This document shows, one piece after another, positions 78-14,225 of a DNA stretch of 14,225 nt (position 1 is the stretch's first letter; each line of letters starts with the position of its first letter). Origin of the DNA: a virus (Duplodnaviria; Heunggongvirae; Uroviricota; Caudoviricetes); the IMG/VR virus record IMGVR_UViG_2778261499_000007, one strand, 5' to 3'. A program made the translations under genes and the position numbers. Below the pieces are notes generated by a model. That model worked only from the letters and a program-made list of their open reading frames with translations, was not told the origin of the DNA and made no database searches.

Positions 78-156
78 CACCTTCCATCTGTGAGAGCTCT
101 TTGTGCAGCTTATCCATCATGCGCTTGTCTATGGTGCAATGGACTTTCGGACTCAT
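1..156 (-). CDS. 5' part (codons 1-52) of a wrap-around 152-aa CDS; putative tail-completion / virion-morphogenesis protein (HK97 gp10-like)
   Basis: ATG at 156-154 is preceded by GGAG with an 8-nt spacer. This ATG overlaps the TGA (155-153) of the upstream gene as ATGA. The frame stays open through base 1 and continues at 14148. N-terminus: MSPKVHCTIDKRMMDKLHKELSQMEGVAVGWDDGKHYSGLNYATLAAIHSEG. The stretch ATLAAIHSEGWGDLPKRSFMESA resembles the yA..vEfG....P.rpF motif of HK97 gp10-type tail components (from memory). Confidence 0.6.
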   Translation of the reverse strand, partial: MSPKVHCTIDKRMMDKLHKELSQMEGVAVGWDDGKHYSGLNYATLAAIHSEG

Positions 157-956
157 TTGTTGATCTCCGTGATGTCATCGAGCAACATGTTGGCCTTATC
201 GATCATCGTTTCGTGGAACTCATTCGACACAACAGACTTATCACCTGCGGCAATCTTTCCAGCAGCCTCTCCCTGTGCATATTCCCCGCGATGCTTAGCC
301 CTGGTGGATTTCGTAGCAGCGTTGCCAGCGTTGCTACCCTCTTTAGCACTGTTAACAGCACCCTTTTGCTGTGTTTTGTTCACCTTCTTACTGTTAGTGA
401 AAACTCCGGCATTTTCGACCATCTTCACCTTGAAGGTGCGGAATTCTTCAAAAGTGCAATCAATAGTGATGCAGTCGCCAGAGGAAGAGCTACGCTTAAC
501 TTCACATTTCGTCATGATGAAGTTCTCAAGAAGTCCGGCATCTTCACTAACCAGGCTAACCAGCTGGCGCTTGTCTCTCATTTCCATAAGTGCCTGAACA
601 GCGGCAGCAGGGCGCATAGATTCACGGGGATTATCTGGATCAGTGTTCCGGTCGATGTAGTTCTCTTTCCGGATGATATGAGGGGAAGAGGTGATAATAC
701 CCGTAAAGCTGACAGATTTATCTTTAATGACGGCATGGTCTGACATGGTGGTGCCATCCTCGACCGCATAGCTCGATTTCTCGACAGGGAACGAATAGCT
801 GACATCAGAGATTGAGTCAAAGAAGATAGCCACGTTATCGGTATAGTTGAAGCCATCCATTATATTTTTGTTTTGTGAATATCCCCCACACATAACAGTG
901 AATGCAGGAGATCTCGACTCAGCTTGTTTTGCAGCTGTCAGAGCATCACTAGCCAT
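153..956 (-). CDS. Putative Dit-like / baseplate-type tail protein (267 aa from Met19 of the track ORF)
   Basis: GGAGG lies 10 nt upstream of the ATG at 956. The track start at 1010 is a TTG with no SD. SFPVEKSSYAVEDGTTMSDHAVIKDKSVSFTGIITS, followed by AAVQALMEMRDKRQLVSLVSEDAGLLENFIMTKCEVKR, matches the PvEdG..isDh...P..l...G pattern plus the later L..l....lv.lvt....y.nm.i....v.r pattern of Dit-like N-terminal domains (from memory). The C-terminal third is low complexity. Confidence 0.45.
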   Translation of the reverse strand: MASDALTAAKQAESRSPAFTVMCGGYSQNKNIMDGFNYTDNVAIFFDSISDVSYSFPVEKSSYAVEDGTTMSDHAVIKDKSVSFTGIITSSPHIIRKENYIDRNTDPDNPRESMRPAAAVQALMEMRDKRQLVSLVSEDAGLLENFIMTKCEVKRSSSSGDCITIDCTFEEFRTFKVKMVENAGVFTNSKKVNKTQQKGAVNSAKEGSNAGNAATKSTRAKHRGEYAQGEAAGKIAAGDKSVVSNEFHETMIDKANMLLDDITEINK

Positions 957-1150
957 ATTAAACATGCCTCCAAATTGGTCCACTTCATGGATTTGGCTAA
1001 ACTCGTGCAAGTAGCACTCATCCCGAGGGTGTTAAAGCCAAACCTGCAAAAGATGCAGGCAAAATAGAACTTATCGTTGCCCTGCTTAAAATCTGCAGAA
1101 AATACAGGGCAGTTATTCGTTAGAATCGCTTATAGCTCTTCCCGAGAGCG

Positions 1151-1480: not shown

Positions 1481-1487
1481 TGGATAA
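1479..1487 (-). promoter_or_regulatory. Perfect DnaA box (TTATCCACA on the minus strand)
   Basis: The plus strand reads tgtggataa, a 9/9 match to the E. coli consensus. It abuts IR-L. Confidence 0.4.
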
Positions 1488-1488
1488 T

Positions 1489-1541
1489 AAAAAAGGGAAG
1501 AGGGAAAGACCTATCCCCGATCTCTCACCTCTTCCCTTTGC
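1489..1541 (-). terminator. Rho-independent terminator after the capsid gene (possibly bidirectional)
   Basis: 10-bp stem AGGGAAGAGG (1494-1503) / CCTCTTCCCT (1528-1537). On the minus strand it is followed by TTTTT. It starts 3 nt after the capsid stop. Confidence 0.7.
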
Positions 1542-1543
1542 TT

Positions 1544-2578
1544 TTATTTAGCCTTGGCAGCGGCGGCGGTGTTTTTAACACTCACTTTAACCACAACTTC
1601 AGGCATCATGTTCATGAAAGCATAAGAGGATTCAACGAAGATTTCGCGTTTGCCTCTGGACTCTTCCATATACATGAAAGCTTCACGTGCAGCGCCGTTT
1701 GCCAGCTTCAGGTTGCGAGCGCAAGGGCCGAAAAATTGAGTATAAACGCCCACCATATCGCCTAACGCATGCGGCTGGAACTGTGGGACTAGATAAGCAG
1801 TATTCTCTGGCAGACTATCCATTTGCACCACACGCAGGGCTAAGCCCGGAATGCGGAAGGTCGGGAAGCCCGGCAGAATATCCTCAGGGAACATCAGACC
1901 TTTATCGGTAATATTCTGATTGCCGAACAACAGCACTTTACGGAGCAGTTCATCAGTCTGAATTGCAGCAAAGAGCTCAGCACGGCAGAACAGGGTGAAA
2001 CCACGCAGAGCGCGAACGACACCACGCTGTTTAACCTTGCTCAGTGCAACCAGGTCCTGCAGCTGTTTAAGGATATCTTGAGCTAGATCCACTTCTGAAG
2101 TGGTTTGCTGTGCGCCCAGCAGTTCGCACACATTCAGTTCTTTACCCTTGGTGAGGATAATTTTGTTCTCAAAGAGAGCAAGCTGGCGTGCTTCTTCATG
2201 GGTCTGGCGTAAGCCTTCGCCCAGTTGAATAACACGACGAGCGGTTACAGACTCTAAATTCTCTTCGGAATCTTTGCCAGGAACGCGGATACCCTGCCAG
2301 TCAGAAGGATAAATAGCACTTGATGCGGCAGTGAACGCCATATCACCCGTGCCCGTTTCACGCTCATCTGCGGTAATGGTCGCCATCTGTTCACCGTAGC
2401 GCGGATACTGACCGAAAGCGGTTTGTTTCACCTGCCGAACTTTGTCATATTCAAATTTGAAGGTATTGCACAGAGCAGTAGTGTTGAAGATATCCATTGC
2501 TGAAATAATCTGATTATCCAGCGGGATGTCTTTAATCAGACCACACAGATCGCGAACTTCGAATTCTTTCTTAGCCAT
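1544..2578 (-). CDS. Major capsid protein, lambda gpE-like (344 aa)
   Basis: AGGAGG lies 6 nt upstream of the ATG at 2578. The track start at 2584 is a TTG. Size, position directly after a gpD-like gene, and overall sequence character fit the phage major capsid protein E family. It is followed by a strong terminator. Confidence 0.7.
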   Translation of the reverse strand: MAKKEFEVRDLCGLIKDIPLDNQIISAMDIFNTTALCNTFKFEYDKVRQVKQTAFGQYPRYGEQMATITADERETGTGDMAFTAASSAIYPSDWQGIRVPGKDSEENLESVTARRVIQLGEGLRQTHEEARQLALFENKIILTKGKELNVCELLGAQQTTSEVDLAQDILKQLQDLVALSKVKQRGVVRALRGFTLFCRAELFAAIQTDELLRKVLLFGNQNITDKGLMFPEDILPGFPTFRIPGLALRVVQMDSLPENTAYLVPQFQPHALGDMVGVYTQFFGPCARNLKLANGAAREAFMYMEESRGKREIFVESSYAFMNMMPEVVVKVSVKNTAAAAKAK

Positions 2579-2589
2579 TTCCAACCTCC

Positions 2590-2925
2590 TTATTGTGCAA
2601 CACGCAAATCGCCATTGCTGGCAGCAATAACAGCGGCTAAGCCGTCTTTATCCACGTAGGCCGGATTGATATAACAGCCTTTGTTGGCAACAACGATAAA
2701 AGCATCACCAACCTCAGCACGTTCTACAACCAGCAGCGGAGTTTTATCGGTGTGCGTTTCTTTAACGAAGGTCTCAACCTCGCCAGCCTCAGTCACCACA
2801 ACAACAGTGCCAGCCGGAATCTCAGCTTTAACTTTGTTTTTAATTTCAACGTCGCGAATACTAAATTGCTCATCTGCGGCGTATGAAATGATGTGTCCGC
2901 GTGTGCGGATAGTCATATCTCTCAT
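2590..2925 (-). CDS. Head decoration / cement protein, lambda gpD-like (111 aa)
   Basis: AGGTGA lies 4 nt upstream of the ATG. About 110 aa with IPAGTVVVV...G..v.....a.VGDAFIVVANKGCY, typical of decoration proteins. It sits immediately upstream of the capsid gene, as in lambda D-E. Confidence 0.6.
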   Translation of the reverse strand: MRDMTIRTRGHIISYAADEQFSIRDVEIKNKVKAEIPAGTVVVVTEAGEVETFVKETHTDKTPLLVVERAEVGDAFIVVANKGCYINPAYVDKDGLAAVIAASNGDLRVAQ

Positions 2926-3410
2926 TTGATCACCTGCGATTTAAATTAACTCCCCTCAAAGAGTTCCGGTATAACCTCTCAAACCGCGACAGGCTCGGGC
3001 CGAAAAGTTATGCCGGAAATCTAAAGGGGGATTGATATAAGGAGAGGGAGATAGCCCCGCACCGTAGCCAAGCGGGGGCTATTCCACATGGGGAAACCGA
3101 CAACAGTCGGATGATAGTTCACAGTATGGGTTACGGTTACTAGAGAGCACTATCACGAAAGGCACTCCCCCGAATCAGTTCAGGCTGCGGTCACATCAGC
3201 GGGGAAATACCTTTCGGGATAGCTACCCACACAGAAAACCCGCAAAAGAAAACTGTGTGGATAACTAGCCCAATAGGAGAATTAATCGACCACTCAACGA
3301 TGATCAGGGTAGTGTTATTTATAGGGCGGCACCGCTACCTGGTCGCCTTTACTTTGGAGGAAAATATGGCAAATCAAGATCTTCTCAAATGATATTGATT
3401 CCATACTATA
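2926..3410 (-). other. About 480-nt ORF-poor, hairpin-dense leader between the SOS promoter and the decoration gene (candidate cos/packaging region or regulatory RNA)
   Basis: Stems read directly: ATAGCCCCGC/GCGGGGCTAT (3051-3081); CCGAC/GTCGG; CCACACAG/CTGTGTGG (3228-3260); TCCGG.ATAAC/GTTATACCGGA (2966-3019, 11 bp with 1 mismatch); and a nested long hairpin at about 3140-3226. There is a GC-rich quasi-symmetric block, GGGCGGCACCGCTACCTGGTCGCC, at 3324-3347. Confidence 0.4.
3256..3264 (-). promoter_or_regulatory. Perfect DnaA box (TTATCCACA on the minus strand)
   Basis: The plus strand reads tgtggataa, 9/9. It lies within the 3' arm of the CCACACAG/CTGTGTGG hairpin and its 3' flank. Confidence 0.35.
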
Positions 3411-3428
3411 CTGTATATTATATCAGTA
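3409..3428. promoter_or_regulatory. LexA operator (SOS box)
   Basis: TACTGTATATTATATCAGTA equals TACTG-N10-CAGTA with an all-A/T spacer. This is the canonical E. coli-type CTG-N10-CAG palindrome. It overlaps the -10 element of the promoter below. Confidence 0.8.
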
Positions 3429-3445
3429 TTTACTCACATTGTCAA
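3417..3445 (-). promoter_or_regulatory. Consensus sigma70 promoter firing leftward toward the decoration/capsid operon
   Basis: The minus strand reads TTGACA (3445-3440), a 17-nt spacer atgtgagtaaatactga, then TATAAT (3422-3417). Both hexamers and the spacing are perfect. Confidence 0.8.
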
Positions 3446-3775
3446 CACCTTGATTATATAAATTCTAATAATTAGCGTAGTAACGGTATTTTCAGACCTC
3501 TATCAATCCCATCAATACGTCACCCCCACCCTTTAGATGCATACATCCGACCTACTTTGTAGGCTTGGCGTACTGCCAAGGTCGCAGCTATGCGACTCCT
3601 ATCTATCACCACTTTATAAAGCTTGATAGATATCTTTTGATCAATATCAATGTTTTCCGGGTATTTACCCGGCTATAGTTCGAATCAAGGAAGGGGAGCA
3701 TTGATAGAGACACCCAAAGGGGTGACTGAAAGTCACCTGGCATAGCCAGTGAAAGCACCCAACCGAACAAACAAA

Positions 3776-3790: not shown

Positions 3791-3801
3791 AGGTGATAGT
3801 T

Positions 3802-3924
3802 ATGGGTATCAAGAACAGTGCCAGCGCATGGCAAAAGGCCAGGTTTCATCACCCACACATTGTTAAGGCAATTGAGGTGGTTGGAGTTTTAGCCCTGATG
3901 TTAGCTCTGTGTGTGGAGGTGTGA
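3802..3924 (+). CDS. Small protein, 40 aa, with a hydrophobic C-terminal segment
   Basis: AGGTGA SD upstream. Translation: MGIKNSASAWQKARFHHPHIVKAIEVVGVLALMLALCVEV. It is below the ORF-track size cut-off and was translated by hand. Confidence 0.4.
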   Translation: MGIKNSASAWQKARFHHPHIVKAIEVVGVLALMLALCVEV

Positions 3925-3925
3925 G

Positions 3926-4006
3926 ATGGGCAAAGGAGGCAAAGCATTTTTAATAGGTCTGGCTATCCTGGATGTTCTACTAATCATGATTAAGCGGAGT
4001 TTATGA
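3926..4006 (+). CDS. Small membrane peptide, 26 aa
   Basis: GGAGG lies 6 nt upstream. The start is 1 nt after the previous stop. Translation: MGKGGKAFLIGLAILDVLLIMIKRSL. Confidence 0.4.
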   Translation: MGKGGKAFLIGLAILDVLLIMIKRSL

Positions 4007-4286: not shown

Positions 4287-4292
4287 TAGGAA

Positions 4293-4336
4293 CAGGCCCG
4301 AAGGGCTTAGCTTTAGCTAAGGTCCTATCAGGACTC
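4293..4336 (+). repeat. Inverted repeat IR-R (44 nt, partner of 1437-1480)
   Basis: Sequence: caggcccgaagggcttagctttagctaaggtcctatcaggactc. It starts 7 nt after the HTH gene stop. Confidence 0.9.
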
Positions 4337-4392: not shown

Positions 4393-5103
4393 ATGTTTAA
4401 AGGTCTTGTTGTTACGCTATTGGCTTGCATTGTATTTGGTCCATGGGTGTTAGTAATTGCTTTACCTATATTGCTGATCATGAGCTTAGGGAATGATATT
4501 AAAAAGCTGCATGCACAATATAAGGAGCATCCTGGAGCAGTCATAACAAGTCTGGTTATAGTCGCGGGGCTTATTGGCTGGGTCTACTTCTCTCTTCCCA
4601 CAGGAAATACAACTGCAAATGTAGAAGAGGCGAACGCACAGCATGAAGAAGTGGTTAACGTCGCCGACCTTACATGGGAGGACAGGGTAAAAGCATATAA
4701 ATATATTTATGGTGTGCTAGATTGCGATCTCTCTAAAGATATAGGATGCACAGATAAATACCAGATTCACGCCTGGCTGTGGAATCATGCAGAAAAAGGT
4801 GCTTGCAACCAGATTAAAGTGGCGGTTAACAGTGGGGCACCTACTGGGAAAAATAAAGATGTTCTGACGGTATGGTGCAAGGATGTAAAAGGCAATGATC
4901 GTTGGCTACAGATGCGCCACATGGACGGTGTAAGCATAGAAACTACACGAACGGCTCGATGGTATAACGGTGAACTCGTTCACGAAGCATGGCAGAATAA
5001 CGCCTGGATCACTGAGGGAACACTCCTGAATGTTGATATGGAAGCATTGAAGATGCTTAATGAGATGTACGGTGAAGCCGTAGAAACCTCTCCGATGAAA
5101 TAA
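4393..5103 (+). CDS. Membrane protein (236 aa) with N-terminal TM helices and a Cys/Trp-rich extracytoplasmic domain; function unknown
   Basis: Hydrophobic stretches: LVVTLLACIVFGPWVLVIALPILLIM and VITSLVIVAGLIGWVYF. Soluble C-terminal domain. Followed by a strong terminator. Confidence 0.6.
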   Translation: MFKGLVVTLLACIVFGPWVLVIALPILLIMSLGNDIKKLHAQYKEHPGAVITSLVIVAGLIGWVYFSLPTGNTTANVEEANAQHEEVVNVADLTWEDRVKAYKYIYGVLDCDLSKDIGCTDKYQIHAWLWNHAEKGACNQIKVAVNSGAPTGKNKDVLTVWCKDVKGNDRWLQMRHMDGVSIETTRTARWYNGELVHEAWQNNAWITEGTLLNVDMEALKMLNEMYGEAVETSPMK

Positions 5104-5113
5104 CCACACCTAC

Positions 5114-5140
5114 CAGGGGCCATCACGGCCCCTTTTTATT
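5114..5140 (+). terminator. Rho-independent terminator
   Basis: AGGGGCC-atcac-GGCCCCT followed by TTTTTATTT. Confidence 0.8.
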
Positions 5141-5200
5141 TATCCCCTATTTACACTCCTTTCAGTCCTGATCATCACTCCCTACCCCCTGATCAATTAA

Positions 5201-5251
5201 CCCCTATTTAAGGGGTATTTAATGGGTATTTAATGCCTATTTATTGATTTA
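5201..5251. repeat. Phased 11-bp repeats (SSSTATTTAWK, 4-5 copies)
   Basis: TATTTA starts at 5205, 5216, 5227 and 5238, an exact 11-bp period. There is a degenerate copy at about 5247 and an isolated copy at 5148. Confidence 0.7.
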
Positions 5252-6486
5252 ATCCGTTTTATGCCACAACCGCCCGGTTGACAGAGTAAGAGAGAGGGTG
5301 TAACCCTTTTTCGTAATACTAATAAAATCAATAGCTTAGCTCAATTGGCCTTTTCTCTGTTTTTGTCAAATTTAACATACCCTAAAAAACTGCAAAATCT
5401 GGCTGCAAGATTATCTGCAGCTGGATTTCTTACACCTCAATTTGTGGTATCACCCTGACTAGTTTGTGCATAAAATGAACAGTTTTTAACATTTCCTCTT
5501 CACCTGGTAACCACACAAAAAGCTAAAAACGAGGCACAGATAATCTTAGAGGCCTGTTTTCTTGTTATCACTCTGGAAACGTCGTAGAAGTGATTTTGAT
5601 GAAAGATGACCTACCCTATTACACCCCCATTTTTTGTTATCACAATTGCATCCTGTGCGGTGTATGGCTGTGTGCTGAAAGCGGTCTTGGGTGTGGGTGT
5701 CAGAAATATCCATTAGCGGTATTAATACCCGTCAGATGTTCGTCTGAGGTGCCAGGCAGGCGCTCCCCCACCTCCCTTTTTTCTTCTAACAATTCTCAAA
5801 TATCACACCACTGCCGACCACGTTACTACTCTGTTAATTCTTAAGCTTTGCTGTATGTTGTGCACATTATTTATTCAGGTGCGTGTACGTAAATTCTGGG
5901 CCTCCTTATCATGATTTTTAAATCAGATTTTGTAGTTCGGTTTCTTAGTGTAGATAAGATCTATTATGTTAAATGCAATTTTCCCAACCCTTCAAATCAA
6001 TGACTTACATGTAAGCATGCACTAACACCCCACACAGCACATTAGACGTATAGATGGCTATATCCCACATTTTTGATTGTTTTGTAGTCATTCCCCTGAT
6101 CATTTAACCAGTATAGTTTGTTCTTTGCAGACCACAAAATCGGAATTTACATCTGATTAACATAATCTGTTAGCATGATCACTATTACCCACACAACAAT
6201 AACCCCATGCAAGACTCTTCAGGCAATTTATCGGCGTGTTGGTGTGAACAGTCTTTCATGTTCTTTATGTTTTCATTGTCCTGTGTGAGGGAAGGATGGA
6301 CTGCCCCAGGGGCCACACTTATGATGCCCGGTCAACATAGCTATTGATAAAATCAACGGGTGTTGATCTGCATATTTCCCACACATGAGAGGAAATCAGA
6401 GCAAAGAGAGAGGAGAGAGGTTTGCTAGTCAAAATAGGTCAATTGACGGCTAATACAGAGTAAAAAATCAGATGCAATCACTCCCC

Positions 6487-6673
6487 ACCTGTTGGGATTT
6501 CCCGCACCTGTATAAGAATACAGTCATACTTTCCCGTTATACGGTCATACACATGATGGAATAACCTGTTGGAATTTCCTACAGGTTTAACCATACACAG
6601 GAGCTAACCTGTTGGAATTTCCTACTACTACCTGTCGGTATTTCCCACAGGTACCTGTTGGAATTTCCCACAC
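6487..6673 (+). repeat. Iteron array (5 x 21 bp, ACCTGTTGGAATTTCCCACAS); candidate replication origin
   Basis: Copies start at 6487, 6564, 6607, 6630 and 6653. The last three have a 23-bp period. Each contains an internal ACCTGT...ACAGGT dyad. An AT-rich flank (6674-6708) contains GATCTATTCTCTT on the minus strand (6683-6695), 1 mismatch from the oriC 13-mer GATCTnTTnTTTT. Confidence 0.75.
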
Positions 6674-6797
6674 TAATAGATAAAGAGAATAGATCAATAA
6701 AAAGAACTCCCCCTATAATCCCCCAACAAGGGGGGATGGGGAGGGATCAGAGAGTGGGGAAGGTTTTCTAAGGGAAAAGCTTAACCCACAAATGAAA

Positions 6798-7086
6798 GCC
6801 TAAAGAGCATTAGCGACTCTTTAGGCAATCTGTGTGTGGGGTGACAATGTATTCCATACATGACACGTCACCCAATTGTGTGTGGGGTGCTTACAGCACT
6901 TAAGCCTCTGGCTTAACCCTTCGGGCCTCTGTGTGGGAAGCGTAGTGCGATAGCACGTAGCTTTATAATGTGGAGTCCGGATAAGAGACTTCTGTTTCCA
7001 ATCCGGACCGTTTAAGCGAGGGATTCCGCTCGCCCGTGTATGCACACACGTAATAGGACGCTCAGAAATCGATTTTAAGGCCCAAA
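6798..7086 (+). other. Cluster of GC-rich hairpins (candidate structured ncRNA or single-strand initiation signal)
   Basis: GCCTAAAGAG/CTCTTTAGGC (6798-6826); GGGTGAC..GTCACCC with nested ATGTAT/ATACAT (6839-6873); CCC-TTCG-GGG context (6917-6925); GTCCGGAT/ATCCGGAC (6975-7008); GCGAG/CTCGC (7016-7033); AGGCCC/GGGCCT (7069-7086). TGTGTGTGGGGTG occurs twice (6831, 6877). Confidence 0.35.
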
Positions 7087-7231
7087 ACGGGGCCTACAGC
7101 AACCTAAACCATACTCCATAGTGCAATTGCATTGCCTGATGCTTAAATCGCGTTGTAGGGCATCTCATGAGGTTTGAGTTTAACACCCTCCAAAGTTTTA
7201 ACAAAAAGTGCTCTCCCTCCATTGTGGGCCA

Positions 7232-7261
7232 TTGACAATCTTATTGCATAAATGCTATAAG
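7232..7261 (+). promoter_or_regulatory. Promoter P1 (TTGACA-18-TATAAG)
   Basis: Read directly. Shares the ATTGACAAT motif with P2 and P3. Confidence 0.5.
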
Positions 7262-7360
7262 TGATTCTGGTTTTGACACGGTAGGGGCCATTAATAATGT
7301 TTACCCCTTTGCTGTGGACTTGCTTGCACCTATAGCACACCTAAATGATAATAATTCTCA

Positions 7361-7389
7361 TTGACAATTGGTTGACAATATGATAAGAT
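7361..7389 (+). promoter_or_regulatory. Promoter P2 (TTGACA-17-TAAGAT)
   Basis: Read directly. A second TTGACAAT lies 11 bp downstream, at 7372. Confidence 0.5.
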
Positions 7390-7424
7390 TATAAATAGGG
7401 GGAGAAACAGATCCGGAGGTCAAT

Positions 7425-7574
7425 GTGGAAATTACTGATGCAATAGCGATCATCAACCTGGCTGTACTGTGGTGCGGTGTTGCCTACATAGCCGGAGTAA
7501 CTGCAATCGACAATCTCGAAGAAAAAATGATAGATAAATACAAAAAGATTGTTGACAATTTGACGAATGTCTGA
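7425..7574 (+). CDS. Small single-TM peptide (49 aa, GTG start)
   Basis: GGAGG lies 5 nt upstream of the GTG. Translation: VEITDAIAIINLAVLWCGVAYIAGVTAIDNLEEKMIDKYKKIVDNLTNV. Not in the ORF track; translated by hand. Confidence 0.4.
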   Translation: MEITDAIAIINLAVLWCGVAYIAGVTAIDNLEEKMIDKYKKIVDNLTNV

Positions 7575-7580
7575 TAAAAT
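7552..7580 (+). promoter_or_regulatory. Promoter P3 (TTGACA-17-TAAAAT)
   Basis: Read directly. It lies inside the 3' end of the 49-aa ORF. Confidence 0.55.
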
Positions 7581-7630
7581 ATAAAGCATAGGGTAATTCT
7601 CATCATAGTGAATTTCCTTAAACAAAAATG

Positions 7631-7662
7631 CGGGGGCTTGTCTTAAGTTCCCGTTTCTTTTT
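7631..7662 (+). terminator. Intrinsic terminator / attenuator in the leader of the replication operon
   Basis: CGGGGGCTT-gtctt-AAGTTCCCG (9-bp stem including two G.U pairs) followed by TTTCTTTTT. It sits between P3 and the ATG at 7706. Confidence 0.55.
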
Positions 7663-7705
7663 AACCGTATATCGCACAGGCGGTGAGCTGACAGGAGATT
7701 GAATC

Positions 7706-11190: not shown

Positions 11191-13293
11191 ATGGCAATGA
11201 AGGAAGTAGCCAAGCTAACAAACGTTATTTACTGGGATTCTGATAAATCCAGCTGGCGAAAAGAAGTTAAACGGCTTGAGGATTATAAAAAATCCTGGAA
11301 GAAAGCTACCGACGATATAGCTAAAGCGGATTTTAAATCTAATCAGGCTGTGCTCAGAACACAAAGAACACGCGCTAAGGTGGAAGAGCAGATCGCCAGA
11401 GCACAGAAGAAACAACGTGCTCAGGCTGTCAGCCGTCTGACCGGGGGCAATAATCCGGAGCTCTCCTCTATGCGCAAGTTCTATCAGCAGCAAGCCAGAG
11501 AGGCCGCCAGACAACAAAAACTGTTAGATCGTAGTGTTGGAGATGTTCAGCACAGAAAAGCACGTGTAGGGGCCAACAGTGCACGAATCAGCAGCATGTT
11601 TGATGGCTCCCTGGTTGCTCAGTTCCAATCCAGAATTCAGAGAGTTAATGCTGATTATGCTAAAGGGGCTATTAACCTGCAGACCTATAATCAGAAAATG
11701 GCCCGACTCAGATCTGAAATGAAGATGGCAACAGCAGAGGCCGGAAAATTTCAGAGCAGACTAGACAAAGCTGCGGTAGCAGGATCAAAGCTGCATGACA
11801 ACCTGGGCAAACTCAACTCCACACTAGGCAAGATAGCTATTGGCCTTACTGCCGCTGGCTGGGGTGTTCAGCGTGCTGTTAGTGGTGCTATGGGTAGCCT
11901 TGCAGATCGCAACAGTGCGTATTTCAGCTTAATGGCCCAGAACAAGGATGATAAAGAAAAAACTGATCAGCAGATGGCCTACGTCAAAAGAATCTCTTAT
12001 GACTACGGGATGGATCAGCGTGAGACTGAAGGCGGCTTTATGCGCTTTGCTGCAGCCACACCAAGCATAAAAGAGAAAGATAAGCAGGATCTCTTTGAGG
12101 CTATGGCGATTAAAGGCCGATCAGTGGGTGCTACCGCAGACCAACAGAACAGGGCTATCGTTGCACTAGGACAAATATATAGCAAGGGCGGTCGAGTGTA
12201 TGCGGAAGAGCTTAAGGGCCAACTTTCTGAAGCCCTGGCAGGTTCTCAGGTAGATTTCACTAAGGCCGCTATCGATGCCGGAGTCATCAAGAAAGAGGAA
12301 GAATTTAATAAAGCCCTTGAAGATGGCAAGATCACCATGGACAAGCTTCTTCCTTCTCTGGTGAAAATCTGGGGTGCTGCAAAAGAAACTAAAGCTTTTG
12401 CTGAATCCATGAAACAGCCAGAAGTAGCAATGCAGCGCATGAAAAACAGCTTTAACGAGCTGGCGATTCAGTTTATGGGTGTTGTGGATCCTGCAGATGG
12501 CGTTATTAGCTTATCTGAATCTCTAATCTCCATCTTCGAAGACCTCACCACTGATATGGACGGCAGCGGGAGCGCGGCAAAACAGTTCGGTGAGGCAGTC
12601 GGGGCTGCCATGCGGGAGATCATGTATTGGGTAGGCTTCGCTAAGGGATATATCGAGATTAAGGCTAAAGAGTTCGGCATGACCAGTGAGGAAGTCGGAG
12701 GATGGATCGGCAAGCTGGTTGTTGCAATCGCAGGTCTGAAGATCATCGGCACACTTCTTTCTCCGTTTACCGGACTGATTTCACTTGTCACACAGCTGAT
12801 AGCCTTGTTAGGTAAAATCCCTGGTATGAGCAAGCTTCTGGCTTCTGCCTCAGGTGGAACGGCAACAGGAGCAGCGGTCATCAGTGCAGGATCTAACGCT
12901 GAAAGAAGTTTCATTGATGGCAAGACGCAGGAAATGAGTAAGGAGAACTCAAAACAGGGTGCTTTGTTTGAGCTGGGAAGATTTGTTAGCAATGCTGGCG
13001 CACTATTCACACCTGGCGGTGATACTGGTCCTTTGTTCGATCAGGTCAGAGGCTGGTTTAATAAAGGGCCAACATTGACAGTAGACACTGGCATCAGACC
13101 AACACCAACGGGTGGCATAGCTATCCAGAATGGTGGATATCAACCAGTCCAAGTAAATGTAGCCCCACAAGGTGAGATTTCCGGCAAATGGGAGATAACC
13201 ATCGATGAGGGGGGAATTGCCAGGGTAATTCAGAAGGAAGTCAGCGATCAGTTGGATTGGAAAGCCACGCAGGAATCTAACCAGCTTTTCTAA
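11191..13293 (+). CDS. Tail tape measure protein (700 aa)
   Basis: GAGG lies 6 nt upstream. Long coiled-coil N-terminus. Conserved tape-measure core: ADQQNRAIVALGQIYSKGGRVYAEELKGQLSEALAGSQVDFTKAAIDAGV. Gly/Ala-rich hydrophobic segments: GKLVVAIAGLKIIGTLLSPFTGLISLVTQLIALLG. Confidence 0.85.
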   Translation: MAMKEVAKLTNVIYWDSDKSSWRKEVKRLEDYKKSWKKATDDIAKADFKSNQAVLRTQRTRAKVEEQIARAQKKQRAQAVSRLTGGNNPELSSMRKFYQQQAREAARQQKLLDRSVGDVQHRKARVGANSARISSMFDGSLVAQFQSRIQRVNADYAKGAINLQTYNQKMARLRSEMKMATAEAGKFQSRLDKAAVAGSKLHDNLGKLNSTLGKIAIGLTAAGWGVQRAVSGAMGSLADRNSAYFSLMAQNKDDKEKTDQQMAYVKRISYDYGMDQRETEGGFMRFAAATPSIKEKDKQDLFEAMAIKGRSVGATADQQNRAIVALGQIYSKGGRVYAEELKGQLSEALAGSQVDFTKAAIDAGVIKKEEEFNKALEDGKITMDKLLPSLVKIWGAAKETKAFAESMKQPEVAMQRMKNSFNELAIQFMGVVDPADGVISLSESLISIFEDLTTDMDGSGSAAKQFGEAVGAAMREIMYWVGFAKGYIEIKAKEFGMTSEEVGGWIGKLVVAIAGLKIIGTLLSPFTGLISLVTQLIALLGKIPGMSKLLASASGGTATGAAVISAGSNAERSFIDGKTQEMSKENSKQGALFELGRFVSNAGALFTPGGDTGPLFDQVRGWFNKGPTLTVDTGIRPTPTGGIAIQNGGYQPVQVNVAPQGEISGKWEITIDEGGIARVIQKEVSDQLDWKATQESNQLF

Positions 13294-14148: not shown

Positions 14149-14225
14149 CCCCTCAGAGTGGATAGCTGCCAGTGTGGCGTAATTCAGGCCGCTATAGTGC
14201 TTTCCGTCATCCCAGCCAACCGCTA
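14149..14225. repeat. Terminal overlap copy 2 (identical to 1-77)
   Basis: Same comparison as for copy 1. Confidence 0.9.

Follow-up and report, generated by a model that had tools for sequence, protein, structure and literature searches.

Does the SOS response of the host govern the capsid genes of a small phage-like plasmid? The question is raised by a locus in the IMG/VR virus record IMGVR_UViG_2778261499_000007, a stretch of 14,225 nt that we refer to as the window; since its ends share an exact 77-nt repeat (positions 1-77 = 14149-14225; spacing 14,148 nt), it is read as a complete circular molecule of 14,148 bp, and all of its relatives are plasmids. On the minus strand of this plasmid a promoter directed at the capsid operon, here called P1, is overlapped by a predicted binding site of the host repressor LexA. 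Taken together, our analysis of the locus and of its relatives indicates that this LexA box is best read as a dispensable, lineage-specific brake on the capsid operon and not as its core switch. The elements of the promoter region are as follows, the site score being given as heterology index (HI):

3440..3445, minus strand: -35 hexamer of P1, TTGACA (read directly)
3417..3425, minus strand: extended -10 of P1, TG (3425-3424), one nucleotide, TATAAT (3422-3417) (read directly)
3428..3409, about -17 to +2 of P1: LexA (SOS) box TACTGATATAATATACAGTA, HI 8.89, predicted binding site
3446..3530, minus strand: AT-rich block upstream of the P1 -35, nearly invariant in 11 aligned sequences (few single-base differences)

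The initial annotation had read TTGACA-17 nt-TATAAT on the minus strand with no mismatch, and the hexamers indeed stand at 3445-3440 and 3422-3417. The 17-nt spacer (ATGTGAGTAAATACTGA) ends in TGA and so provides the extended -10, and in our promoter scan P1 scores 12/12 with the TG before the -10. The window contains the arrangement TTGACA-N17-TATAAT a single time, and it did not occur in 200 shuffled sequences. With its consensus -35, 17-nt spacer, extended -10 and consensus -10, P1 is predicted to be a near-maximal sigma-70 promoter, transcription from which would start near 3409-3412; the AT-rich block further upstream is possibly UP-element-like. The scan returned no better promoter between P1 and its genes.

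E. coli LexA recognises motifs of the type CTG-N10-CAG, and a position covering the -10 and the +1 is established for repression by LexA. TACTGATATAATATACAGTA is a CTG-N10-CAG motif with perfect TACTG/CAGTA arms; it spans the extended -10, the -10 and the predicted +1 of P1, and the TG of its CTG is at the same time the TG of the extended -10. The coverage of the -10 element by such a motif, as annotated before, is thus borne out at 3428-3409. For scoring we used a Lewis-type HI, the matrix of which was obtained by regression on the 141 (sequence, HI) pairs of PSOSP Table S1 (PMC12527982); the fit is exact, reproducing all 141 published values with a root mean square error of 1e-5. Scored with this matrix, a check that had been proposed along with the annotation, the box lies mid-range and well within the range of E. 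coli LexA binders: in the same table the binder class reaches HI 13.6, with a low-HI peak at 7.3, and it contains E. coli K-12 sites at HI 8.80, 9.19 and 9.40 (PSOSP Table S1, PMC12527982). One of these K-12 sites, TACTGATGATATATACAGGT, even has the same unusual TACTGAT half-site as the box. The label 'canonical SOS box' therefore suits the CTG-N10-CAG form and the perfect arms, but not the strength of the site, which is mid-range (HI 8.89) and not consensus.

The whole HI penalty of the box arises at positions 6-10, i.e. the nTATA of the extended -10: the box centre ATATAATATA is dictated by the -10 hexamer, at a cost of 8.9 HI units. When TGATATAAT is held fixed, the LexA consensus is matched at 11/11 of the positions left free, with P(HI<=8.9) ~5e-7, and in Markov-1 random sequence only 0.005 boxes this good are expected per 14 kb. 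As P1 and two further promoters of the plasmid (P2 and P3, see below) all have TGATA and (C/T)AG near the start, we had suspected that the box might be a by-product of this promoter family; given the probability of ~5e-7 with TGATATAAT fixed, we rejected this idea: the promoter does not bring the box with it as a side-effect. On these grounds we consider it likely that TACTGATATAATATACAGTA is a functional LexA operator, i.e. a site that LexA would bind and that would make P1 SOS-inducible.

Downstream of P1 the following features were found:

2926..3411, minus strand: untranslated, structured leader of P1, 486 nt, no conserved open reading frame (ORF)
2590..2925, minus strand: 111-aa protein at the place of a head-decoration gene, its family confined to these elements
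1544..2584, minus strand: major capsid protein, 346 aa (phrog_29, E = 5.5e-21)
1484..1541, minus strand: intrinsic terminator directly after the capsid stop codon, a long GC-rich hairpin followed by UUUUUUAUUAU

Because the terminator (126-nt fold, -46.6 kcal/mol, z = -3.65) directly follows the capsid gene, P1 serves a two-gene head operon. The same layout of decoration gene, capsid gene and annotated terminator is seen in rV5-like phages, and for the tail genes further downstream no other sigma-70-like promoter was found in positions 1-2600. Over 97% of its length the capsid protein shares 25% identity with the major capsid proteins of rV5-like phages; Pfam gave no match for it, whereas the syntenic capsid gene of distant relatives carries Phage_cap_E (PF03864). 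For the 111-aa protein there was no Pfam, PHROG or PDB match, its AlphaFold model from the single sequence is unusable (predicted local distance difference test score, pLDDT, 36), and an exhaustive HMMER search returned 5 matches at E<=0.001, none of which connects it with a decoration family that is already known. In the rV5-like phage Alma the same place is occupied by a gene of phrog_2680 ('head decoration'), but the two proteins show no sequence similarity and agree in position and size alone. Of the gpD-like and gpE-like genes that had been named as the next ones in this direction, the latter is thus supported indirectly, through phrog_29 and the Phage_cap_E domain of distant relatives, and the former only by its position. 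In a 1,706-aa protein (P0025), 12 repeated stretches match a 30-residue stretch of the 111-aa protein, which may on account of these repeats be built on a repeat-like beta motif.

The leader of this operon is strongly structured (minimum free energy -172.6 kcal/mol, compared to -137.3 +/- 6.1 for shuffles; z = -5.74), and it is nearly invariant in relatives, with a conservation above that of its flanks. It contains a hairpin with a conserved 11-nt loop, CAGGUAGCGGU. Leader blocks and stem changes are common to clade B, a group of relatives whose capsid protein is 82% identical to that of the plasmid; there the stem is altered on both sides and the pairing is kept. Neither in the leader nor in the ORF-poor region described below did we find an Rfam family at gathering or E-value thresholds. 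Two short reading frames within this stretch were considered and discarded. For a leaderless 29-aa ORF (3404..3315, minus strand) neither start nor frame is conserved, and its conserved part fits the hairpin with paired changes; for a plus-strand ORF beginning MANQDLLK behind a GGAGG Shine-Dalgarno sequence (3368-3392), the ATG reads ACG in all ten other aligned elements.

How general the LexA site is can be judged from clade A, 32 closely related sequences taken from complete plasmids, assemblies and metagenomes; as these sequences share ancestry, the following counts do not represent independent events. The -35, the 17-nt spacer and the -10 of P1 are identical in 32/32 sequences, and the box is intact (HI 8.89) in 19/32, in the form of 3 alleles. 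However, several observations weigh against LexA control of the operon. In 13/32 clade-A sequences (5 alleles) the box is broken (CAG to CAT; HI 17-18), the difference from box-plus neighbours being the loss of one G, the loss of 6 nt, or a deletion combined with a substitution. Clade B has no box, its P1 reading TTGACA-17-TAAAAT; the same holds for a more distant clade (L082/L083), where P1 reads TTGACT-17-TATAAT-ATAC..., and in all the box is absent from three more distant clades. Within the box itself, position 6 is an A that costs 3.0 HI units, although a T would be better for LexA and harmless to the promoter. Repression by a medium-affinity operator that sits on a multicopy plasmid and faces a consensus extended -10 may also be weak, and, to judge from the long conserved leader, the dominant control may act downstream of initiation. 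Finally, the likely helper phages of the plasmid (see below) are virulent, so that the adaptive reason for SOS control is not evident. Since the promoter is kept in 32/32 sequences while the box is broken in 13/32 and absent elsewhere, LexA is not the general switch of the capsid operon, and since the same promoter is present in relatives that lack the box, LexA control would be lineage-specific and dispensable. In terms of history, P1 is old and constrained, and the box is a clade-specific addition that was probably lost several times.

We therefore favour the brake over the switch. P1 would transcribe the 486-nt leader, the 111-aa gene and the capsid gene and stop at the intrinsic terminator. 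In an undamaged cell a LexA dimer would compete with RNA polymerase at P1 and lower its output; upon DNA damage RecA* would trigger LexA to cleave itself, and P1 would fire. As a medium operator (HI 8.9) opposes a very strong promoter, repression is probably partial. This gate would be present in our plasmid and in about 60% of its close relatives, as an add-on to further control, for which the leader or a helper phage is probably responsible. Of the proposal in the initial annotation that capsid synthesis is wired directly to DNA damage, a strong promoter with a predicted LexA site is thus retained, but not the role of a general switch for the operon; that it would bypass a late activator cannot be claimed, because the structured leader (z = -5.7) points to further control.

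Related promoters and a second LexA-like box occur elsewhere on the plasmid:

7552..7580, plus strand: P2, TTGACA-17-TAAAAT with TG, P1 paralogue (scan 11/12)
7361..7389, plus strand: P3, TTGACA-17-TAAGAT with TG, paralogue upstream of a 49-aa ORF; HI 42, no box
7630..7664, plus strand: intrinsic terminator between P2 and the first gene (7706) of the replication/tail operon
6506..6525: second LexA-like box ACCTGTATAAGAATACAGTC, HI 9.40, inside an iteron array (6485-6671) of the ORF-poor region

The kinship of P2 and P1 is visible in an inverted repeat, I2 (79% over 42 nt). At the position of the box, P2 has GTCTGATAAAATATAAAGCA (HI 18) and hence no LexA box, and CTG-N10-CAG was found at P2 in none of the 11 aligned sequences. 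The terminator at 7630-7664 is conserved in relatives, and in one of them (L012) a different hairpin with a T-run is found at the same place; both the terminator and its replacement suggest attenuation or antitermination, and together with the P1 leader they suggest control after initiation. P1, P2 and P3 have TTGACAAT...TGATAnAnT in common. A 5-kb sample of an rV5-like phage (L079) contains four promoters of similar style, e.g. TTGACA...CTGATAAAAT, and the promoter style of the plasmid may be a case of phage-type promoter mimicry.

As to the second box, a further box with HI <10 is present in 25/30 elements larger than 11 kb (four sequence variants, HI 6.25-9.40), and 29/30 of these elements have at least one box with HI <10. 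In the distant clade mentioned above (L082 1905-1924, L083 1068-1087) a strong LexA box with HI 5.69, TACTGTATGTGCATACAGTG, comes right after a TTGATT-17-TAAACA promoter, which reads into the equivalent of the ORF-poor region; the head and tail gene order is the same as in our plasmid. The box at 6506-6525 could be a gate on replication or on a non-coding transcript. It could also be an operator for a Rep dimer, formed by an inverted pair of iteron heads, but this reading loses ground in view of the variant GACTGTTTAAATACACAGTA and of the distant clade, where the HI 5.69 box lies over a promoter.

Four other explanations have to be weighed against a LexA brake on P1. The one closest to it overlaps with it and differs in which layer dominates: LexA would bind, but the box would merely trim basal transcription, and the capsid genes would be turned on and off after initiation by the leader, via Rho- or structure-dependent termination or occlusion of the ribosome-binding site, relieved by a factor of the helper phage or of the plasmid. 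The strong fold of the leader and its conservation above the flanks fit this explanation, as do the CAGGUAGCGGU-loop hairpin, which keeps its pairing despite changes in clade B, and the P2 terminator, which is fixed in position and was swapped for another hairpin in L012; furthermore, the box-less relatives retain the same perfect promoter, and no second sigma-70-like promoter for the tail genes lies in 1-2600. On the other hand, the promoter/terminator scan showed no canonical intrinsic terminator within the P1 leader, the leader matches no known RNA family, and the covariation is thin (5 sequences, 4 pairs changed on both sides). We regard this as a serious contender that stops just short of being probable. 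Clearly less likely, in our opinion, is that RNA polymerase simply out-competes LexA and that the box has no function at all, its patchy distribution reflecting neutral drift. Such drift would fit a box that is present in 19/32 and absent in 13/32 sequences, that is toggled by single-nucleotide indels and missing from other clades, and that has a mid-range HI with an unoptimised position 6. Yet drift would hardly arrive at 11/11 consensus matches in the free positions (P ~5e-7), chromosomal sites of similar HI are classed as binders, and 3 box-plus versus 5 box-minus alleles fit the repeated loss of an ancestral box better than chance gains.

The palindrome might also be the operator of a repressor encoded by the plasmid or the helper, e.g. 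the 86-aa HTH_7 protein, since the plasmid has several genes for small helix-turn-helix (HTH) proteins and P1, P2 and P3 are alike beyond their hexamers (TTGACAAT..., TGATA...). But the motifs common to the promoters are not the arms of the palindrome, P2 (HI 18) and P3 (HI 42) lack the palindrome, the arms match the LexA consensus exactly, and the same proteins are encoded by relatives with or without the box, which makes such a repressor very improbable. Even less credence do we give to the divergent SOS switch of the initial annotation, in which the box would also serve a weaker rightward promoter. The strings do exist (TTGATT at 3395-3400, followed by TATTAT at 3416-3421 with a spacer of 15 or TTATAT at 3418-3423 with a spacer of 17), and plus-strand genes (small membrane ORFs, an HTH gene and a 236-aa gene) start ~370 nt to the right. 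However, the hexamers are poor: TATTAT has a spacer of only 15 nt, TTATAT matches in 3/6 positions, its position 2 not being A, neither pair passes the promoter scan, and indels among relatives shift the spacing to 9-13 nt.

The LexA brake would act on a plasmid whose closest matches are small (13.2-13.7 kb), non-mobilizable E. coli plasmids with 91-95% identity. The hosts of all relatives are E. coli, and carriage is rare (7 of 5,426 complete E. coli genomes, on a plasmid every time). A search of phage records revealed no near-identical phage, IMG/VR gave no match when searched with protein and DNA pattern, and 19-mer scans of genome and metagenome collections returned mostly chance AT-rich matches, the only metagenome contigs of the plasmid family being 4. 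Searching the literature by the names and accessions of the plasmid family, we found no paper on it. The remaining features of the plasmid are:

Minus strand: 111-aa ORF, major capsid protein (phrog_29), 86-aa ORF, Dit-like protein, tail-completion/Neck1-like protein (gene spanning the window ends)
Plus strand: small membrane ORFs, HTH_7 protein, 236-aa protein, winged-helix (wHTH)/Rep-like proteins, 700-aa tape measure
5100-7400, among the plus-strand genes: ORF-poor 2.3-kb region with iterons

Only the capsid protein, the Rep-like protein and the tape measure are encoded by ORFs of at least 300 aa; as no further ORF is long enough for either, portal and large terminase are absent. The plasmid thus has some virion genes (capsid, tape measure, Dit-like tail-tube initiator, tail completion/Neck1) but an incomplete set, in keeping with a satellite, and it would depend on a helper. 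Several small HTH proteins, including the 86-aa HTH_7 protein, are encoded as well. No tRNA was found by a tRNA search.

Further observations concern the less well-defined parts of the plasmid. Three small hydrophobic ORFs of 43, 31 and 49 aa (3793-3924, 3911-4006 and 7425-7574, plus strand) are conserved; they are found upstream of the HTH_7 gene and in the interval from P3 to P2. The ORF-poor region contains repeated CCACAC/CTGTGTGGGG motifs (e.g. at 6830, 6878 and 6930) and CCCCTGATCA repeats at 5186 and 6093, and its motif CTGTGTGGG recurs in the P1 leader; the region may have packaging or origin functions. Two inverted repeats (1437-1481 and 4292-4336; 45 nt, 89% complementary), each built of small hairpins, bracket a segment with the capsid operon, P1 and the HTH_7 gene. 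Like a 52-nt element shared with rV5-like phages, which they resemble, they contain ACCCAAAGGG; they are possible terminators or recombination sites. Among the relatives, L013 (NZ_CP043822.1, 39,610 bp) is a head-to-tail trimer of a ~13.2-kb unit in which some copies are damaged, representing either a true multimer/concatemer or an assembly artefact. Another, L015 (NTNY01000053.1, a 30.1-kb contig), has an insertion with two strA/strB-like aminoglycoside phosphotransferase genes, a transposase and TetR-family genes, so that the plasmid family can carry antibiotic resistance.

Which phage could serve as a helper? The Dit-like protein (153-1010, minus strand) is 51% identical to the tail-tube initiator of rV5-like Vequintavirinae (E = 1e-57), the best matches of the capsid protein (1544-2584, minus strand) and the tape measure (11191-13293, plus strand) come from the same rV5-like group at ~25% identity, and these phages have an ORF-free region that is 90% identical to a non-coding 52-nt hairpin-cluster element (3704-3755) of the plasmid. 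Judged from these similarities, the plasmid is probably a satellite of rV5-like phages that has not been described before. The rV5-like Vequintavirinae are virulent phages, and in the phage collection they were the only relatives of the structural genes of the plasmid; no temperate relative was found. The synchrony with an SOS-induced helper prophage that had been put forward in the initial annotation is accordingly left without a candidate. One could instead imagine an autonomous plasmid satellite of virulent rV5-like myoviruses that uses host LexA to sense the DNA damage caused by infection, and that would be fired by lytic infection and not by prophage induction. The capsid protein, the tape measure and the tail-tube initiator would be the satellite's own contribution, possibly for particles of smaller size, one LexA box gating the capsid promoter and the box at the iterons/origin gating replication or a non-coding transcript. 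With all its parts taken jointly, we consider this scenario doubtful.

Direct use of LexA by mobile elements has precedents. Operon I of the Staphylococcus aureus pathogenicity islands (SaPIs) is LexA-controlled (Ubeda et al. 2007, as cited in PMC3152322 and PMC5052747). As far as these secondary accounts describe it, operon I is, like the capsid operon here, a satellite morphogenesis/packaging operon directly under host LexA, and is in the SaPI case independent of the late activator of the helper. There are differences, too: SaPIs are chromosomal islands of a Gram-positive host with another LexA motif, whereas our element is a plasmid; their operon I encodes terS and capsid-remodelling proteins but no capsid protein of its own, whereas the plasmid encodes one; and their helpers are SOS-inducible temperate phages, whereas the only phages related to the plasmid are virulent and rV5-like. 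In addition, the box at the capsid promoter of the plasmid is polymorphic. Of the hallmarks of the SaPI type, a LexA box at a morphogenesis promoter is thus seen in the window, though not in all relatives, and an SOS-inducible temperate helper is not seen. In GIL01, a tectivirus and linear plasmid prophage of Bacillus thuringiensis, host LexA acts at promoters including the late structural promoter P3 (PMC4551915, PMC6182141). GIL01 resembles our plasmid in being a small extrachromosomal phage-like element (~15 kb in GIL01) with direct, in our case predicted, use of host LexA. However, it is a complete phage, and LexA together with the co-repressor gp7 on its early promoters is its lysogeny switch, whereas the early/replication promoters P2 (HI 18) and P3 (HI 42) of the plasmid have no box. 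LexA control of structural genes, which had been called unusual, is therefore indeed uncommon, but not new.

In its operator the plasmid comes close to the medium-strength SOS operators of E. coli, e.g. the K-12 chromosomal sites at HI 8.8-9.5, which we take to be those of uvrD, ruvAB and yjiW/symE: they also have CTG-N10-CAG, a similar HI and a position in or beside a sigma-70 promoter. Those promoters are of ordinary strength, whereas P1 scores 12/12 and its -10 hexamer forms the centre of the box. With regard to its gene content, the closest parallel is the phage-inducible chromosomal islands of the capsid-forming kind (cf-PICIs), satellites with their own capsid (bioRxiv 10.1101/2022.09.08.507074). 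Like them, our ~14-kb element encodes its own major capsid protein and not a full virion. But cf-PICIs are integrated islands with a full head and packaging set that steal only tails, whereas our element is a plasmid with an iteron replicon that has capsid, tape measure, tail-tube-initiator and tail-completion genes and no ORF of the size of a portal or large terminase. In the literature we found no report on LexA control of cf-PICIs. According to a 2025 review, one plasmid alone has been proven to be a phage satellite, in that case of an inovirus.

What does the LexA box mean for this family of plasmids? The mechanism itself would be ordinary, since repressor sites that cover a -10 are textbook knowledge and a satellite has already provided a precedent. 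What distinguishes the locus is that the operator is built into the promoter: the -10 hexamer is the centre of the box, and one-base indels toggle the operator. Because one G is all that separates naturally occurring box-plus from box-minus alleles, an experimental control is already built in. If LexA gates P1, SOS-inducing antibiotics would raise the capsid output from a plasmid that possibly rides in phage particles. The plasmid itself is a more novel object than its regulation and, with strA/strB-like resistance genes in one variant, may matter more.

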